Notes under the pieces: generated by a model
What the model was told of the DNA's origin: nothing
The model's input: the letters and a program-made list of their open reading frames with translations, nothing else
Database searches by the model: none
Shown here: positions 49,791 through 56,430 of the stretch, one piece after another
Layout of the letters: each line of letters starts with the position of its first letter
Position numbering within the stretch: the first letter of the stretch is position 1
Origin: Pseudomonadota bacterium
GTDB taxonomy: Bacteria > Pseudomonadota > Gammaproteobacteria > Eutrophobiales > Eutrophobiaceae
Direction: 5' to 3'
DNA length: 62,192 bases
Assembly: GCA_022574295.1 (NCBI GenBank)
Contig: JACZSJ010000003.1
Span: 1 to 62,192, forward strand
Made by a program: the position numbers and the translations under genes

Positions 49791-50963
49791 GTGAAGATGA
49801 AGATCATTGCTGATCAACAAATTCCCCATGTAGCTCAAGCGTTTTCCCAATTCGCAGAAGTGACGCTTTGTGATGGTCGTGAAATCACCGCCGAAAGCAT
49901 CCACGAAGCTGATGTTCTACTGGTTCGATCAGTCACCCCCGTCAATGTAAATTTGCTGCAGGGCAGTCATGTCAAATTTGTTGCCTCAGCTACCAGTGGT
50001 CAAGATCATATCGACAGTGATTACCTGCAGCGAAATAACATCGGTTTTGCCCATGCGAAAGGAAGTAATGCAAGGTCTGTTGCTGAATATGTTATGAGTA
50101 GTCTTTTTGTACTGGCAGATCAGCACGATTTTAAACTCAAAGAAAAAACAGTGGGCGTCATTGGCTGTGGTGAGGTGGGCTCACGCGTCATCGCCATGTT
50201 TGAGACAATGGGTGTTAGAACTATTATGAATGATCCACCACTCAAGGATGCCATTAGCAATAGTGCCAGCACTGGCGAGCAATACCGTGATCTCCGGGAG
50301 CTTCTCTCAGCAGATATTATTACCTTGCATGTGCCTATAACAGAAGGTGGCCCATATCCTACGTTAAAATTAGTCGATGCTGGTTTTCTGGATAAATTAA
50401 ATGGCGATGTGATTTTATTAAATACGTCACGCGGCAGAGTCATTGATGAAGTGGCATTAAGGGTTCATTTGGAAAGTCATCACAATATGAAAGTTGTACT
50501 GGATGTTTGGGAAAATGAACCAGACATTGATACAGATTTGCTCACACATACTGCCATAGCGACACCCCATATCGCCGGTTACAGTATGGATGGAAAACTC
50601 AGGGCGACAGAGATGATTTTTCGATCCGTGTGTGAATTCTTTAAACTCAATGCCACATGGCAAGTGGTAACAGAGTTGCCCGATGGCAGTATGCCTGAAT
50701 TAACTCTGAGTGCTGATATAGATGATGAAGATGCGATACAAATAGCGATATTGGCGAGTTATGATGTCAGGGGTGACAGTGCAGCGCTAAGATGCTTACC
50801 TGAAATTAATATTGAACAACGCGGTCGTTACTTTGATGAACTCAGGGAAAATTACCCTGTGAGAAGAGAATTTACAGCGATGATGATCAGGCTACCTGAG
50901 AGCAAGAAAGCATTGGCTGAAAAATTGAGACAATTAGGGTTTAACGTGAAATTGACGTCATGA
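49791..50963 (+). CDS. pdxB: Erythronate-4-phosphate dehydrogenase
   Basis: LLVRSVT, GSNARSVAEY, LDVWENEP and TPHIAGYS motifs. Confidence 0.93.
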   Translation: MKMKIIADQQIPHVAQAFSQFAEVTLCDGREITAESIHEADVLLVRSVTPVNVNLLQGSHVKFVASATSGQDHIDSDYLQRNNIGFAHAKGSNARSVAEYVMSSLFVLADQHDFKLKEKTVGVIGCGEVGSRVIAMFETMGVRTIMNDPPLKDAISNSASTGEQYRDLRELLSADIITLHVPITEGGPYPTLKLVDAGFLDKLNGDVILLNTSRGRVIDEVALRVHLESHHNMKVVLDVWENEPDIDTDLLTHTAIATPHIAGYSMDGKLRATEMIFRSVCEFFKLNATWQVVTELPDGSMPELTLSADIDDEDAIQIAILASYDVRGDSAALRCLPEINIEQRGRYFDELRENYPVRREFTAMMIRLPESKKALAEKLRQLGFNVKLTS

Positions 50964-51571
50964 AAACTGGATCAGAAAAGATCAGGCTTGGTTTTTTGGC
51001 ATCCGGTCGCGGCAGTAACATGTTGGCTATTATTGATAATTGCAAAGCTGGGAAACTCGATGCTGAGCCTGTCGTGGTGATCAGCAATAATGCAGATGCA
51101 GGTGCACTTGTATATGCACGTAAAGCAGGAATCCCCGCATTTCATCTCAGTAGTAACAAACATGAAGATGAATCGGTACTCGATCAGGAAATGACGGACA
51201 CCTTGAAATCACATAATATAGATTGGGTGATCCTGGCAGGTTATATGAAGATGATTGGATCGAAATTACTTGAAGAATTTCGGGGCAAGATACTTAACAT
51301 TCATCCATCTTTATTACCCAGACACGGTGGTCAGGGGATGTATGGGCTTCACGTGCATGAAGCGGTACTTGCATCGGGGGAGTCTGAAACTGGTGTCACC
51401 ATTCATATGGTGGATGGTGAATATGATCAGGGAAGGATCTTGGCGCAGGAAAAGGTTTCTGTCGAAGCGGATGATACGCCTGAATCACTAGCTGCTCGCG
51501 TATTGAAAGTTGAGCACGAGCTTTATTCGGAGACTTTGCAGGGGATTATTGAGGGCAGGATTAGTTTCTGA
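50960..51571 (+). CDS. purN: Phosphoribosylglycinamide formyltransferase
   Basis: ASGRGSN, LAGYMK, NIHPSLLP and G.TIH.V..EYD.G motifs. Confidence 0.9.
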   Translation: MKTGSEKIRLGFLASGRGSNMLAIIDNCKAGKLDAEPVVVISNNADAGALVYARKAGIPAFHLSSNKHEDESVLDQEMTDTLKSHNIDWVILAGYMKMIGSKLLEEFRGKILNIHPSLLPRHGGQGMYGLHVHEAVLASGESETGVTIHMVDGEYDQGRILAQEKVSVEADDTPESLAARVLKVEHELYSETLQGIIEGRISF

Positions 51572-51611
51572 TTCAGCCCGTCATTCCCGCATTCTCGTCA
51601 TACTGGCGAAT

Positions 51612-53194
51612 CAGGCTGTGTGAAAACTCTATCATAATAATGGAACTTTGAAGAGTGTCACTGATCAGATCTAAGAACGTCAGAACAGGATTATTACGAT
51701 GAATCATAAACGAGGTCAATCCCGCCACCAGACGACATTGTTTCCTGAAGCACTGGATGATCTGATCCCAGCTGATCATCCCGTACGAGTAGTGGATGCC
51801 TTCGTGGATTCTCTGGATTTATTGGCATTGGGGTTTGGCAAGGTGGTGCCAGCAGCAACGGGTTGTCCGCCTTATCATCCGGGTGATTTGCTGAAGCTAT
51901 ACGTGTATGGCTATCTGAATCAGGTGCGCTCGAGTCGGCGTTTGGAGAAGGAGAGTCAACGTAATGTGGAAGTATTATGGTTGGTCAATCGCCTGAGTCC
52001 GGACTTCAAGACGATTGCGGACTTTCGCAAGGACAATCGTCAAGCCATCGTCGGCACGTGCCGGGCGTTTGTTGGTTTTTGCCGGGAGCAAGACCTGTTC
52101 GGGGCGGAGTTGGTGGCCATTGACGGCTCGAAGTTTCGAGCGGTAGCGAGCAAGAAAGCGGCCTATACCCCGAAACGAATAGAGCGGGAATTAACGAAGA
52201 TAGATAAACGCGTAGAGGAATATCTGTCGGATCTGGATGAGTCCGATGCGGTGGAGCCAACGCTACCAAGGGAAGGCAAGACGACAGACGCTATCGCGGC
52301 ACTACAGGGACAACGGGAAGCGTTGCAGGCGATGGCGGTAGAGATGCAGGAAAGTGGCGAGAAACAGCAGGTCACTACCGAACCCGATGCGCGGTTGATG
52401 CGCCAGGCAGGGGGTGGAAAGGAAGTGGCATACAACGTACAAACCGCAGTGGATGCCAAACACAAACTGATTGTCAGCCATGAGGTGACCAATGATGGCA
52501 ATGATTTGAACCAACTGTATCCGATGGCCAGCGCTGCCCAGGCGGCGTTGGATGCTGAGCAGTTAACAGTGGTGGCGGACGTGGGTTATCAGAACGGCGA
52601 GCACGGGGCGGATTGTGAAGCAGCAGGGATCACTGCGGTGGTACCCAAACCGAAGCCGGTGAACCCGAAGGGCGACTTCTTCGATAAGAGCCAGTTTACT
52701 TACGAGGCGGAACAGGACCAGTACCGTTGTCCGGCAGGCGAAGTGTTGAAGGTGTATAAGACGGATCATAAAAAAAAGGTACGTCATTACAGCACATCTG
52801 CTTGTGAAGGTTGTGCACTGAAGTCGCAGTGTACGAAGAGTCGGCGGCGGACGGTCAATCGGCAATTTTATGCTGACTCGGCAGAGCGTATGCATCGACG
52901 AGCGGTTGAACAGCCAGCACTGATGCGACAGCGGGCTTGTTTGAGTGAACATCCCTTTGGGACGATAAAACGGATGATGGATAACGGGCAGTTTTTGATG
53001 CGTGGGCTTGAGAATGTCAGGGCGGAAATGGGCTTGAGTGTACTGAGTTATAACTTAAAGCGGGTAATAAACATTCTGAGTGTGGAGACCTTATGCGCAA
53101 GATTGGCGACATAGGCCAATTCATTTTTATATGAATAGATAATCTGGAGAACAGGCCTTGATGACACCAACTTTAGAAGTTTTCACACAGCCTG
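51612..53194 (+). mobile_element. IS1182-family insertion sequence (1583 bp)
   Basis: Perfect 17-bp TIRs caggctgtgtgaaaact / agttttcacacagcctg, 4-bp target duplication GAAT, and visibly higher GC than the flanks. Confidence 0.95.
51699..53114 (+). CDS. IS1182-family DDE transposase
   Basis: SSRRLE, PDFKTIADFR, AIDGSK, YNVQ, CPAG, EHPFG and YNLKR motifs. Confidence 0.95.
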   Translation: MNHKRGQSRHQTTLFPEALDDLIPADHPVRVVDAFVDSLDLLALGFGKVVPAATGCPPYHPGDLLKLYVYGYLNQVRSSRRLEKESQRNVEVLWLVNRLSPDFKTIADFRKDNRQAIVGTCRAFVGFCREQDLFGAELVAIDGSKFRAVASKKAAYTPKRIERELTKIDKRVEEYLSDLDESDAVEPTLPREGKTTDAIAALQGQREALQAMAVEMQESGEKQQVTTEPDARLMRQAGGGKEVAYNVQTAVDAKHKLIVSHEVTNDGNDLNQLYPMASAAQAALDAEQLTVVADVGYQNGEHGADCEAAGITAVVPKPKPVNPKGDFFDKSQFTYEAEQDQYRCPAGEVLKVYKTDHKKKVRHYSTSACEGCALKSQCTKSRRRTVNRQFYADSAERMHRRAVEQPALMRQRACLSEHPFGTIKRMMDNGQFLMRGLENVRAEMGLSVLSYNLKRVINILSVETLCARLAT

Positions 53195-53241
53195 GAATGC
53201 CAGTATCCAGTAATTAATATCATCATTCTTTTTAGTTTCTA

Positions 53242-53457
53242 TTTCGCCTTTAACCGGCAAGTACCTTTCTCTTGCGTGCCCAAGAGAAAGGTACGAAAGA
53301 GAAGGGCACCCGGATGTCTTACCCTTCGGGTTCCTGAATTTACCTTAATGACTAACGCGCCGTCCACAGGACTCGTCCCTGATCCGGTGGACTAAAATGT
53401 ACATCCTGTACATTTTTCGCTACTCATCAAAATAAATTCAGTAAGACATCAACGGGG
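53242..53457 (+). repeat. ~215-bp structured repeat, left copy (triplex motif plus branched hairpins)
   Basis: First 77 bp match the reverse complement of 54479-54555 at about 63/77 (hand count); contains nested internal stems. Confidence 0.85.
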
Positions 53458-53525
53458 CAGTAAGGGCAACCAAACTCTGGCAAAGTGGCATAATCATAAA
53501 GATCGGGCTATTCTAGGTTTTAACT

Positions 53526-54305
53526 GTGTTGAACTTTCTGATTCAATTTTCGTCTGCCGTTCTTAAACTCAATCGATTACTTGGGACGAGATTTGTCCCC
53601 GACCATCCAAGTAACGCATCGCCGCTTGGCAAAAGTCTCTACAATATATTTTCTCATCACAATACTGGTAACTATTTACATCGTGATTCTGAATTACAGA
53701 GAGTACGTTTTCTCATACAGAATCTGCAGGAATTGGAAAAATTTAGGCCGGATTTACTTCGTGTTTATGCTAAGAATCTTCGCAAGGCGGGTGGCTCTGA
53801 CTCTTTTTACGGTGCACGATTTGAAATAGATATAACGGCATCACTTTTGAAAAAAGGTATTTCACTAAACAAAGGTGAAAGACCAGATCTTCGGATTAAC
53901 GAATCTCAAGTATCAATTGAATGTACGAGTGTAAGATCGAGAACTGCCAAAGCAAACAAAGATTTAACATACAAGATTAACGCATCCGTATTCAAGAAAT
54001 CCAAACTTGGATATGCAAATCGCTCAATGGCATTATTCATTGATATCACTAACATTTCTCATCTAACATCTTCGTTTAATCCAGACGAATTTCGTAAGGC
54101 GGCTATCAATTGTCAAGATGAGAGTCCATTTGGAGCGCTGGTTCTACTTGTCTCACTGATGAATCACGATCTAGATAGATTTCAGACGAATTATTTGCGA
54201 ATTGATAATCCTAAAATTTCAACGGACCTTCTTACTTTTCTTAATAAATACTATTCACTTGGTAAACACAGCGTTACCGATTTTGATATTCCATTTGAAG
54301 GCTAA
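53526..54305 (+). CDS. Hypothetical protein, possible PD-(D/E)xK nuclease fold
   Basis: 259-aa AT-rich ORF with FEID...RPDL...IECT motif; start codon uncertain. Confidence 0.6.
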   Translation: MLNFLIQFSSAVLKLNRLLGTRFVPDHPSNASPLGKSLYNIFSHHNTGNYLHRDSELQRVRFLIQNLQELEKFRPDLLRVYAKNLRKAGGSDSFYGARFEIDITASLLKKGISLNKGERPDLRINESQVSIECTSVRSRTAKANKDLTYKINASVFKKSKLGYANRSMALFIDITNISHLTSSFNPDEFRKAAINCQDESPFGALVLLVSLMNHDLDRFQTNYLRIDNPKISTDLLTFLNKYYSLGKHSVTDFDIPFEG

Positions 54306-54342
54306 TCAACAGGATTAGTATCGATTGATAGTGTGTTTTCTC

Positions 54343-54555
54343 CCCCTTATATCGTGCCGAGCAGGTGAATGATTTTAAGGGCATTTGAACAGGACGTTCA
54401 AATGAGCGTAACCAAGACAGGAGTCTTGTTTACGCGACCTTAAGAAATCATGAACTTGTGAGGGAATCCGCAGGATACGATATCGGGGTGCCCTTTTTCT
54501 TCGTACCTTCTTTTTGGGCATGCAAAAAGAAGGTACTCGCCGGTAAAAGGCGAAA
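54343..54555 (-). repeat. ~215-bp structured repeat, right (inverted) copy
   Basis: Same architecture as 53242-53457 but with different stem sequences. Confidence 0.85.
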
Positions 54556-54575
54556 CCAAAACTTCATCGAAGATA

Positions 54576-54603
54576 AGATCTCTCACTTTCGTTCGAGATG
54601 ACA
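54576..54603 (-). repeat. REP-like palindrome (GTCATCTCGA...GAGATCT type)
   Basis: Reverse complement reads tgtcatctcgaacgaaagtgagagatct. Confidence 0.6.
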
Positions 54604-54658
54604 TTAGGTCGCCGTTTGGGCGAAACCAATAACTAAATGAATAATGAAGATTAAATTG

Positions 54659-54687
54659 ACTGGGTTCTGGCATTCGCCAGAACGACG
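54659..54687 (-). repeat. CGTC-type REP palindrome, inverted partner of the split REP
   Basis: Reverse complement reads cgtcgttctggc-gaat-gccagaacccagt. Confidence 0.8.
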
Positions 54688-54731
54688 AAAATCAATGAGG
54701 CCGCTTGTAGGTGCGGGAACCTACAAAACAG

Positions 54732-56189
54732 CTACTGCTGATACAACCACTTCAAAATCTCATCCTGCACCTGTGTTCCAATCCCATTCTGGATACCAGG
54801 ATAATTTTGTAAAGCAACCACCACATAATGTTTACCACTGACACTATGCACATATCCAGCCATCGCCCTTACATCATTGAGCAATCCTGTTTTAATCCTT
54901 ATTTCACCCGCAGGGACAGCCCCATTTAAACGCTTACGCACAGTACCATCAATCCCGAGCATCGGTAACGATGCCATAAATTCCGGCTGATATGGGCTAT
55001 GATATGCGTGCTCTAATAGAGCCCCCATTGTTGCAGCTGAAACTCTTGATTTACGTGATAAGCCAGAGCCATTATCCATAACGAATTCTGACGCAGGTAT
55101 TCCAATAGAGATCAGCCATTTATGAATGGCTTGTCGTCCTAATATTTTACTACCTTTGCCTTCCTTGTTTTTATGATTTTGTTTTTCTTTACCTATGGTC
55201 AACAGCAATTGTCTCGCCATCACATTATTACTATATTTATTGATGTAGGTAATGATTTCAGTCAATGGTTTCGATGTCGCAACATAGAAAGGTTTTTCTC
55301 CATTGATTCTGGTTTTCCCGACCGTCCCAGTTATTGTGCCCCCCATGTTTTCCCATAATGATTTAAATACCCCATAAACATACTGATCATTTGGCATGAT
55401 AGTACGTAATAAATTCTGGTGACCACAGGAACGTGGGTAATCTCCGGTAAATGTAATCAATGTTTGATGTCCATGTGTTGTTACATCATGTTTGATGTGA
55501 CGATGCTTTCCTCGACATCTACCTTTGGTTAATTTCACTTTGTTGTTTATCTTCATTGTTGAGGCAGGAGGATCGGCATAAATATGCAAACCATCTTTTT
55601 GCGGAACAAAATTAAATTGATGCACGCGGAAATTGACCAAAGCTGCATCAGGAAAAACATTGTATGCTCGATATGGTTTATTATCGAAGTCCGCAGGAGA
55701 ACCAGTTTCATCTTCAAACTCACCATTATCAATTAATAAATCACCCTGAATATGCTTTAAGCCTTTTGCCCGTAAGGTAAACAAAATATGCCAAAAAGCT
55801 TCTCTGACCAGAAACGGATCACCCCCACCCTGCATGATTAAATTACCATCAAGCGTGCCGTCAGAAAGTGTTCCATCAAGATAAAAATTGGTTTGCCAGG
55901 TATATGTTGGGCCGAGGAGTTCAAGACCGGCAAATGTAGTGATTATTTTAATGGTAGATGCTGGATTGCGAGGAACATCAGCATTCAGTGTTATCAACGG
56001 CTGTCGCTTATCAATTTCCTTAATGTATAAACTCAGCGATTTTTCCGGGATTTTGTAGTTCTTTAATATTTTCTGAACTGCACTCGGCAATTTATCCATG
56101 GCAGCATTTTCTGCACTGCTTGCAGAATGACTTGCTGTCATTAATGTTATGGCAAATACACTGGATAATATTAAATGGGAAAGCTTCAT
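54732..56189 (-). CDS. dacB: D-Ala-D-Ala carboxypeptidase/endopeptidase PBP4
   Basis: PASTIK (SxxK), SNN, NGSGLSR and KTG motifs. Confidence 0.95.
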   Translation of the reverse strand: MKLSHLILSSVFAITLMTASHSASSAENAAMDKLPSAVQKILKNYKIPEKSLSLYIKEIDKRQPLITLNADVPRNPASTIKIITTFAGLELLGPTYTWQTNFYLDGTLSDGTLDGNLIMQGGGDPFLVREAFWHILFTLRAKGLKHIQGDLLIDNGEFEDETGSPADFDNKPYRAYNVFPDAALVNFRVHQFNFVPQKDGLHIYADPPASTMKINNKVKLTKGRCRGKHRHIKHDVTTHGHQTLITFTGDYPRSCGHQNLLRTIMPNDQYVYGVFKSLWENMGGTITGTVGKTRINGEKPFYVATSKPLTEIITYINKYSNNVMARQLLLTIGKEKQNHKNKEGKGSKILGRQAIHKWLISIGIPASEFVMDNGSGLSRKSRVSAATMGALLEHAYHSPYQPEFMASLPMLGIDGTVRKRLNGAVPAGEIRIKTGLLNDVRAMAGYVHSVSGKHYVVVALQNYPGIQNGIGTQVQDEILKWLYQQ

Positions 56190-56338: not shown

Positions 56339-56430
56339 TGTCATGCTGGGGTATCCCAGCATCCAGTGATAAAGTGTCCGCGAAGCGGACTCATTCAATT
56401 AACTGGATTCTGGCTTTCGCCAGAATGACG
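56339..56430. repeat. Inverted CGTC-type REP doublet (REPIN-like)
   Basis: gtcatgctggg-gtat-cccagcatccagt ... actggattctggc-tttc-gccagaatgacg, with a central gtccgcgaagcggac hairpin. Confidence 0.85.

Follow-up and report, generated by a model that had tools for sequence, protein, structure and literature searches.

TwoAYGGAY RNA (Rfam RF01731; Weinberg et al. 2010, PMC2864571) has been without an assigned function since 2010. According to the available text of a recent preprint (Li et al., bioRxiv 10.64898/2026.09.22.753630, 24 September 2026), the TwoAYGGAY RNAs of Pseudomonadota carry structure beyond the Rfam model, and the extended form presents extra hairpins, an elongated basal stem, a 3′ pseudoknot, and short GMTBT repeats on the 5′ side; genomes hold from none to about 200 copies, accompanied by flanking repeats, and the doublets in Pseudomonas are 68.4% divergent (2,164/3,166), with a median spacing of 249 bp. 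The same text cites a proposal that AYGGAY loops bind Csr/Rsm proteins and suggests Csr/Rsm sponging, reports REP arrays downstream of TwoAYGGAY copies in SBW25, and terms the expansion of the family "mobile-element-like"; both the swings in copy number and the divergent doublets were reported in 2026 with the mechanism left open. The main text of the preprint does not mention integrons, attC, REPIN, RAYT, or cargo, and a literature search found no paper naming both TwoAYGGAY and integron. Two further described systems are relevant here, namely clusters of attC sites lacking integron integrases (CALINs; Cury et al. 2016, PMC4889954) and insertions at attG sites (Loot et al., bioRxiv 10.1101/2022.09.11.507474). 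We describe a 62,192-nt stretch of DNA (hereafter the window; positions 1 to 62,192 of contig JACZSJ010000003.1, GenBank assembly GCA_022574295.1, from a Pseudomonadota bacterium), in which two inverted structured elements enclose a gene of 259 aa (ORF259) between the core genes purN and dacB.

A first-pass annotation of the window had proposed that the two elements are structure-recognized ends of a non-autonomous cassette, which is possibly moved as a whole by a trans-acting single-stranded DNA (ssDNA) enzyme of the HUH (RAYT-like) type. We arrive at a different reading, which we hold with somewhat better than even confidence: the pair is a divergent TwoAYGGAY doublet of the known kind, not a pair of transposon ends, and the interior of such a doublet is a landing place for accessory genes, including integron cassettes. 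In one genus of marine methylotrophs, doublet interiors hold gene cassettes whose attC sites lie directly beside the elements at a constant spacing, which connects an RNA family of unassigned role with gene capture by integrons; the use of doublets as secondary integron docking sites is testable.

The element pair and its copies across the genus

The genome under study (G000) is a 2.2-Mb metagenome-assembled genome of 175 contigs, 96% complete, whose contigs break at the element repeats. It was compared with ten relatives (G001–G010); the resulting genus set of 11 genomes, several of them fragmented and all mutually related, includes three complete genomes, as well as G003 (89% complete), G008 (63% complete), and the likewise incomplete G002 and G009. 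The pair presents the following features (positions in the window; copy types are defined below).

53234–53458, − strand: left TwoAYGGAY-type element (nhmmer match 53458–53234), with core, 14-bp 3′ hairpin, and small terminal hairpin
53361–53416, − strand: left terminal hairpin pair, loops ACAGGAU and CAGGGAC (RNA sense), from the predicted fold and the Rfam alignment; stems covary in 20 copies
53459–53519, − strand: truncated 5′ leader box of the left element, from flank comparison and an alignment of nine P-type copies
53526–54305, + strand: ORF259, the accessory gene presently occupying the slot; sole long open reading frame (ORF) between the elements, GTG start
54338–54563, + strand: right TwoAYGGAY-type element, of another sub-family (nhmmer)
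54382–54435, + strand: right terminal hairpin pair, loops ACAGGAC and ACAGGAG, from the predicted fold and covariation
54564–54690, + strand: right 3′ trailing modules, comprising some 70 further bases plus a small GC hairpin repeat at ~54657–54685

The two window elements are copies, belonging to different sub-families, of a multi-copy TwoAYGGAY element arranged as a divergent doublet. The RNA sense of the left element reads leftwards, away from ORF259, and that of the right element reads rightwards to the 3′ end of dacB. The inverted repeat arms (53234–53334 and 54463–54563) presented 79% complementarity over 101 nt, close to the ~82% that had been counted by hand over the outer 77 bp, and each arm contains a perfect 14-bp hairpin (53261–53294 in the left arm and 54503–54536 in the right arm). 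The extents given in the first-pass annotation (53242–53457 and 54343–54555) located the elements correctly, but the true limits are slightly larger. The inner ~140 nt align poorly between the copies and nevertheless share one predicted fold, as that annotation had recognized, with a closing stem, a small hairpin, a long stem, and two terminal hairpins with GGA loops, in this order. Compared with 200 shuffles per copy, both copies were highly structured; the minimum free energy was −101.1 kcal/mol for the left copy on the − strand (z = −7.76) and −90.0 kcal/mol for the right copy on the + strand (z = −6.68), and 0/200 shuffles equaled the native value in either case.

The left copy matched the Rfam model of TwoAYGGAY (RF01731) at 53316–53462 on the − strand with 44.5 bits, as compared to a gathering score of 43 bits; the right copy gave no match to this model even at E ≤ 10. 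The elements thus represent an already described Rfam family rather than a new one, a finding that the first-pass annotation itself had listed as one that would speak against its cassette model. A covariance model (R1) was built from a trimmed alignment of 20 copies (16 from G000 and four from relatives); two of these seeds pass the Rfam model, and the right window copy is itself among them. R1 scored 197.8 bits for the left copy (53260–53458) and 200 bits for the right copy (54340–54537). Compensatory changes were found in 51/66 consensus pairs of the alignment, which, together with the folds, confirms the presence of two inverted structured elements around the ORF. The alignment of copies contains 56 G-U cells as compared to 8 A-C cells, indicating that the folding strand is the TwoAYGGAY-sense strand, which reads outward on both sides. 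The GGA of the loops is invariant in 20/20 copies, and the strict motif CAUGGAUG is found in other copies.

The element forms a repeat family in G000, in which iterated nhmmer searches from both copies gave 40 matches, ~22 of them near full length and many located at contig ends; R1 gave 42 matches in the same genome, 21 of them strong (≥100 bits). With R1, as had been recommended, the element was found in 10/11 genomes of the genus. Strong matches numbered 21 in G000, 15 in G007, 12 each in G003, G010, and G008, six in G001, three in G002, two in G009, one each in G006 and G005, and none in G004. These 85 strong matches formed 18 neighboring pairs (≤3 kb apart), of which 17 were divergent, one was tandem, and none were convergent, with gaps of 53–1604 bp (median 750 bp). 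The expected enrichment of inverted pairs with inward 5′ and outward 3′ ends was therefore borne out (17/18 neighboring pairs in 11 genomes), and a geometry of this regularity argues against a passive pile-up of repeats. One doublet, at the locus represented by contig C69 of G000, recurs in four genomes (G000, G001, G007, and G003).

Two types of copies could be distinguished by their 5′ flanks. P-type copies carry a conserved leader box, while D-type copies have in front of them a short conserved box placed immediately after a GTTA core. The full P-type leader comprises ~215 nt, with an ORF-like stretch of 45 codons, and closes with a hairpin and then a GTT core-like site, beyond which P-type copies diverge completely; that the conserved leader stops exactly where the cargo starts is likewise difficult to reconcile with coincidence. 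Leaders of ~215 nt, with an ORF-like stretch beginning MKIPHI, were seen in G000 (C69:12780–12925 and C86:7635–7818) and at loci L119, L123, and L125 of the relatives; such a leader may encode a peptide, contain a promoter, or act as an attI-like site. The left window element is of the P-type, with a leader cut down to its first ~60 nt; similarity to other copies stops a few bases short of the ORF259 start. A P-type copy is paired with a D-type copy in the doublets on C52 and C69 and apparently also in that on C145. The C69 doublet is laid out as P element, leader, cassette, attC, cassette, attC, 14 nt, and D element. This arrangement suggests that the basic doublet may consist of two elements spaced by a leader of ~250–300 nt, with cassettes inserted into the spacer, since such a spacer would fit both the gap of 305 bp in the C52 doublet, which contains no gene, and the median of 249 bp in Pseudomonas.

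Several smaller modules accompany the elements. The trailing module of the right element is also present after the left element, at 53195–53233, resuming past an insertion sequence (IS) at ~51590–51611. The small GC hairpin repeat, which occurs in the window at 54657–54685 and 56393–56430, is scattered genome-wide (contigs C7, C11, C16, C74, C82, C95, and others). In the copies at the dacB flank of G001 and G002, a hairpin module of ~52 nt is nested in the second terminal hairpin. A search for sRNA-Xcc1 (RF02221), considered as a possible clan relative that is carried in integron cassettes, gave no match in G000 at E ≤ 1, and this idea was dropped.

Integron cassettes and other contents of doublet interiors

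An integron integrase was identified in G000 at C117:25314–26243 (− strand), near a contig end, with a TIGR02249 score of 402.6 bits (cut-off 265 bits). Integrases above this cut-off were found in 4/11 genomes of the genus (G000, G007, G010 with two, and G001); none was found in the three complete genomes, which hold 0–1 elements, nor in the incomplete G002, G003, G008, and G009. The region upstream of the C117 integrase presented no sequence common to other contigs or to the leader. For attC sites, a first model (R2) was built from five seeds chosen by eye, all from G000, and a second one (R3) from 22 R2 matches, with a reporting threshold of E ≤ 0.001 in the genus. Scans combining regular expressions with folding were noisy and missed sites that are plain by eye; they served only to supply three candidate seeds.

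R3 identified 16 attC sites in G000, including nine in tandem on C3, two in the C69 doublet, two in the C145 doublet, and one each on C86, C91, and C60. The tandem array on C3 (C3:6300–11626, − strand; spacing about 440–1,120 bp, mostly 550–750 bp) and the integrase on C117 are probably parts of the main chromosomal integron, split by the assembly. Across the genus, 58 attC sites were found in 11/11 genomes; 12/58 lie on the same strand as an element and within 100 nt upstream of its 5′ end, and 10/58 lie within 20 nt. The gaps in these ten cases range from −5 to 16 nt, that is, 0–16 nt except for one site that overlaps the element by 5 nt, while a rough estimate from 58 sites, 90 elements, and ~23 Mb gives a chance expectation of ~0.002 for such spacing; a coincidental association of cassettes and elements is thus poorly compatible with these positions.

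The C69 doublet provides the clearest view of how its interior was filled. A stretch of 877 nt in this interior is 99.1% identical to a stretch in another species (G003:C47), while the core flanks are only ~80–90% identical, and the homology ends exactly at a G|TT core, at a hairpin that presents, by eye, the R″-L″...L′-R′ layout of an attC site. This two-gene cassette (C69:13401–14277; 73 and 168 aa) is 94–100% identical in G003:C47, G001:C85, and G002 (C64, C77, C8, and C124), which points to recent horizontal exchange, as the identity of the cassette exceeds the ~80–90% identity of core genes. The interior of the C69 doublet differs among G000, G001, G007, and G003 while the flanking elements stay, so that cargo and elements do not appear to travel as one unit. 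The slot at the dacB flank presents a similar picture: G001 contains three ORF-plus-attC cassettes before the element, G008 contains one, with the attC touching the element, and G004 contains one beside an element remnant. Judging by their attC sites and junctions, several doublet interiors are true integron cassettes, and wherever the arrival of cargo can be traced, attC sites and G|TT junctions show integron-type recombination and not an ssDNA/HUH route.

A corresponding locus without cargo was seen in G010 (C19:17412–17494, L134), where the "empty" C69 locus contains one small terminal hairpin and a 3′ trailing module but no element body. It represents either what was left after a deletion between the two terminal hairpins or a target that was never occupied.

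Other doublet interiors hold a variety of small genes. In G000, the C10 doublet contains ORFs of 211 and 152 aa; the C69 doublet contains ORFs of 102, 73, and 168 aa; the C145 doublet contains an exonuclease gene with RNase_T and BRCT domains and an ORF of 160 aa; and C49 contains ORFs of 67 and 213 aa, the latter weakly PIN-like. YefM-YoeB is encoded on C49, adjoining element remnants, and HicAB is encoded on C145 between two tandem (same-strand) copies. A HEPN-like ORF is also among the slot contents, and an HNH ORF lies beside the dacB-flank element in G001. The 19 doublets from relatives contain mostly one small ORF each, often membrane-like. Overall, a Pfam match at E ≤ 0.001 was obtained for 8/36 slot ORFs and none for the remaining 28/36. 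These interiors show one place where streamlined environmental genomes keep small defense-like and toxin–antitoxin genes, apart from the main integron array. The hicAB block of G000 (C145:295–882) is 91% identical to one in G001 (L062:2126–2723) at a different locus; in G001, hicAB lies directly behind purN, where only an element-end remnant of ~25 nt can be seen by eye and no full element was detected.

Taken together, these observations fit a model in which each element copy, which folds on its outward-reading strand and displays two GGA hairpin loops, would most likely be produced as an RNA and bound by the global regulator CsrA. The DNA at the 5′ sides of the elements, that is, the doublet interior, would be a preferred landing place for small accessory genes in this genus. 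Where the route is readable, the integron integrase would insert gene cassettes, each consisting of an ORF followed by attC, such that the last attC ends a few bases before one element and the partner element's leader stops at a core-like GTT. In the window, ORF259 now occupies the slot beside the ancestral dacB-flank element, and one relative of it elsewhere looks like an integron cassette.

The csrA gene of G000 is located on C73, and the terminal hairpin loops are candidate CsrA-binding sites by virtue of their GGA motifs. Expression was assessed from assembled contigs of public runs (RNA libraries X19, X20, and X17), not from reads. Two RNA libraries contained contigs over the 5′ halves of right-type elements at a depth of 61–157, as compared to 0–8.6 for the body of the ORF, and one RNA-library contig of 277 nt matched 53558–53834 with one mismatch. 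A DNA run presented an element-to-ORF depth ratio of ~7 (119 to 16.3).

ORF259 and the purN and dacB flanks

The core genes and the IS flanking the doublet are as follows.

50960–51571, + strand: purN, left-flank core gene (PF00551, E = 1.4e-54)
51612–53194, + strand: IS, outside the element pair, with a 471-aa DDE transposase at 51699–53114 (PF13751, PF05598, and PF01609)
54732–56189, − strand: dacB-type D-Ala-D-Ala carboxypeptidase gene, right-flank core gene (PF02113, E = 3e-83)

The first-pass annotation had placed a variable cargo slot between purN and dacB. The variable accessory interiors were found as proposed, but the two core genes are neighbors only in G000. In none of the ten relatives was a purN found within ~6 kb past the dacB 3′ end, and in the 8/10 relatives with enough contig the next conserved DNA beyond dacB is the gatB-side region of G000 contig C73. 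In 5/5 relatives examined, purN is followed by DNA homologous to C167 and not by dacB, and in the three complete genomes the two genes are hundreds of kb apart. Since purN and dacB are apart in the relatives, their adjacency is, by this comparison, a rearrangement peculiar to G000 with its breakpoint inside the doublet.

The dacB flank could be assessed in nine relatives. A full element of the right type is present in the same place and orientation in five of these (G008, G010, G006, G002, and G001), with 71–88% identity, while G007 contains a partial element at a contig end, G004 a decayed remnant, and G005 and G009 none. The dacB-flank element begins abruptly at its 5′ end, beyond which each genome has unrelated DNA. 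From its conserved position, the right element is therefore ancestral at the dacB flank in the genus, where it occurs in relatives without ORF259 and without the left partner; together with the fact that the two arms belong to different sub-families, this speaks against the proposal that the elements are the ends of a mobile unit. In G006, the dacB-flank element is 87.6% identical to the window copy at the DNA level (54338–54563 as compared to L060:5490–5707), while the dacB protein is only 66% identical, a contrast that indicates strong constraint or homogenization among copies.

The IS behind purN presents terminal inverted repeats of 17 bp (51612–51628 and 53178–53194), is flanked by a 4-bp duplication, occurs once in the assembly, and is inserted in the loop of the small GC hairpin of the left trailing module. 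As the IS splits an otherwise intact hairpin, with the halves on both sides and a 4-bp duplication, the join on the purN side looks genuine. This IS lies just outside the left arm, and the earlier statement that no transposase or integrase lies between the elements is correct; no target duplication around the pair was seen either, in agreement with the same annotation, and 0 direct-repeat families were found in 52800–55000. Two contig joints that skip ORF259, from 53457 to 54343 (X1) and from 53211 to 54650 (X17), were seen in one contig each and probably represent other doublets.

ORF259 had been described as an orphan, nuclease-like gene. It is not an orphan: it belongs to an unnamed family, of which a word-indexed search gave 21 proteins at E ≤ 1e-3, and an exhaustive search gave 435 cluster representatives at E ≤ 0.001, including 291 at E ≤ 1e-10 and 51 at E ≤ 1e-30. 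The closest homologues are 59–73% identical, and contigs carrying homologues include those of Neobacillus, Geoglobus, a Dehalococcoidales bacterium, and flavobacteria; ORF259 was found in 0/40 relatives searched. This patchy spread is typical of accessory genes. Sequence searches against Pfam, PADLOC, and the PDB gave no match.

The nuclease-like character has some support at the level of the fold. ORF259 is predicted to consist of a helical domain at the N-terminus and a C-terminal domain of the alpha/beta type (AlphaFold2, pLDDT 88.3, pTM 0.87). The best fold match of the C-terminal domain was 4g6v_A, the CdiA-CT of Burkholderia pseudomallei (Z = 9.1, root-mean-square deviation 3.0 Å, 124/132 residues aligned, over residues 74–228); further CdiA-CT chains and two type IIS restriction enzymes, BsmI and PaqCI, followed at Z = 5.8–6.5, the type IIS enzymes at 6.0–6.5. 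Foldseek gave nothing against the PDB at E ≤ 0.001 (best E = 6.5e-3). We take the matched CdiA-CT and type IIS chains to have the PD-(D/E)xK fold. Invariant residues in the ORF259 family include E118, P120, D121, E132, C133, S135, and K150; the position two residues after E132, where the catalytic lysine would usually be found, is serine/threonine-like, and K150 follows further on. A PD-(D/E)xK-like nuclease fold for the C-terminal half is therefore plausible in the predicted model, because E118, P120, D121, and E132 fit such a site, though the usual lysine position is not kept; the designation nuclease-like is plausible rather than proven.

The stop codon of ORF259 lies 32 nt from the right element. 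Both junctions in the window read G|TTTT by eye, which would agree with integrase-type joints without coming close to proving them. In L100, a homologue with 54% identity is flanked on both sides by sites that look attC-like by eye, with a weak model match (E = 0.33); the other 14 loci with homologues gave no match to the attC model. An Rfam scan of 10 metagenome loci gave nothing relevant. One R1 match of 22.8 bits was seen 3.5 kb beyond the ORF259 homologue in L027. The route by which ORF259 arrived is inferred, since ORF259 has no detectable attC of its own, and the window locus taken alone, a known element pair around an accessory gene of nuclease fold at a rearrangement junction, is a more modest result.

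Competing readings and relation to described systems

Several findings weigh against the doublet interior as a landing place for integron cassettes, or limit how far this reading extends. ORF259 itself gave no R2 or R3 match at E ≤ 1, and the best match in 53400–54400 had only 5.5 bits (E = 1.8); in 15 loci with ORF259 homologues, R1 found no element beside the gene. No attC was detectable in the G000 doublets on C10, C49, and C52 or at the dacB-flank ORFs of G010, G006, and G002, and the main array on C3 and the regions proximal to the integrase gene (intI) contain no element. G003 and G008, with 12 strong elements each, yielded no integrase; they are 89% and 63% complete, respectively. Several doublets are orthologous, so that the pair counts are not independent and overstate the number of events, and the attC models are home-made from five seeds picked by eye in G000, which makes both their sensitivity and their E-values rough. 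The join of purN, IS, and element depends on the split hairpin and the 4-bp duplication, as public contigs break inside elements. A scan for promoters and terminators in 53150–54750 did not exceed chance (four promoter-like sequences as compared to 3.4 expected, and one terminator-like sequence as compared to 1.4 expected), and the depth contrast in the RNA libraries is a weak hint of element transcripts, which DNA carry-over or other copies may explain.

A further-reaching possibility, which we put forward tentatively and with some doubt, is that TwoAYGGAY doublets are integron docking platforms that lack an integrase: the spacer or leader would provide an attI-like site, the integrase would be encoded elsewhere, many dispersed slots would be available, and the bracketing CsrA-binding RNAs would insulate the slot or couple it to the Csr regulon. 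If true, this would give TwoAYGGAY and its doublets a role and add a new layer to integron biology.

Among the alternatives, coincidence deserves the first consideration. Selfish or regulatory repeats, IS, accessory genes, and cassettes may simply pile up in tolerant spaces behind convergent core genes, and a rearrangement may have joined a purN-flank copy with a dacB-flank copy without any functional tie. Several observations lend some credit to this view, in that purN and dacB are adjacent only in G000, an IS and several small repeat modules share the same space, ORF259 carries no attC and has homologues elsewhere with no element nearby, and hicAB moves without elements. The 17 divergent and 0 convergent pairs, the ten attC sites at near-constant distance from an element on the same strand, and the leader that stops at the core-like GTT make coincidence an unlikely explanation.

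A dedicated satellite platform, in which the doublet is an integrase-less docking site with an attI-like site, the RNAs insulate the cassettes or tie them to Csr, and the element is active in the capture or expression of cassettes, appears quite unlikely. The consistent spacing between attC and element, the leader ending at a GTT core-like site, the pairing of a leader-bearing copy with a copy whose short box follows a GTTA core, and the gap of the cassette-free C52 doublet (305 bp), near the Pseudomonas median (249 bp), all agree with such a platform, as does the co-occurrence of the integrase with element-rich genomes and its absence from our matches in the three complete genomes with 0–1 elements. 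On the other hand, many doublets have no detectable attC, the main integron arrays have no elements, the co-occurrence is weak given that the genomes are related, and the use of the sites is deduced from sequence within a comparison that covers the doublets of this genus.

The whole-cassette HUH model of the first-pass annotation is very improbable: the enrichment of inverted pairs around variable genes is strong, the elements are highly structured and multi-copy, with contigs breaking at them, and the single terminal hairpin at the "empty" locus of G010 could be read as a target or an excision scar, but relatives without the ORF carry an orthologue of the right element at the dacB flank, the arms resemble each other (79%) over the outer 101 nt only, no target duplications or direct repeats were seen, cargo changes between staying elements at the C69 locus, hicAB stands at the purN flank of G001 with no full element detected there, and the lone Y1_Tnp gene of G000 encodes a 144-aa IS200-type TnpA on C21. 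Nor does Y1_Tnp, which was found in 6/11 genomes, track the number of elements in the genus; it was not found in G003 and G008, with 12 strong elements each, and was found three times in G005, with one element. Beside the C21 TnpA gene (C21:1005–1742, L067), the end of an ORF resembles, by eye only, the start of a group II intron reverse transcriptase. A miniature inverted-repeat transposable element or composite transposon was also considered and rejected, as the likeness of the arms (79%) is confined to 101 nt, no direct repeat was found at the outer ends, and the right arm is ancestral.

The reading that we prefer, a divergent TwoAYGGAY doublet whose interior receives accessory genes, can be placed among the described systems as follows. 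REPIN-RAYT systems consist of REP doublets mobilized by a domesticated HUH transposase. The pairs described here share with them the organization as inverted pairs of short structured repeats that are intergenic, non-autonomous, and present in many copies; unlike in REPINs, the arms fall short of near-identity, the long spacers contain coding sequence, and no RAYT candidate was found. With the CsrA-sequestering RNAs CsrB, RsmY, and RsmZ, the elements share GGA motifs in hairpin loops and a CsrA encoded in the same genome, but each copy presents two GGA loops, and dozens of dispersed copies take the place of one to three dedicated genes.

The closest likeness is to extended TwoAYGGAY RNAs, with paired GGA-loop hairpins on a common basal stem, extra hairpins, and repeats on the 3′ side; the window copies in particular show the extra small hairpin, the long stem, and the 3′ hairpins. 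As in that family, copies number in the tens per genome, vary in number between relatives, and form an excess of divergent doublets. The right window copy departs from the Rfam family in failing the RF01731 model, and the doublets depart from those in the available text of the preprint in that their gaps have a median of 750 bp rather than 249 bp and hold genes, several of them with attC. The cassette runs resemble CALINs and attG insertions, as these are described in the accessible parts of the two reports, in that short runs of ORF plus attC lie far from the integrase gene, with an integrase elsewhere in the genome, and in that the similarity of cassette copies breaks off at the G|TT core. 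They differ from both in being fixed relative to an RNA element, with the last attC 0–16 nt from its 5′ end, and in being bracketed by a second, diverging copy of that element.

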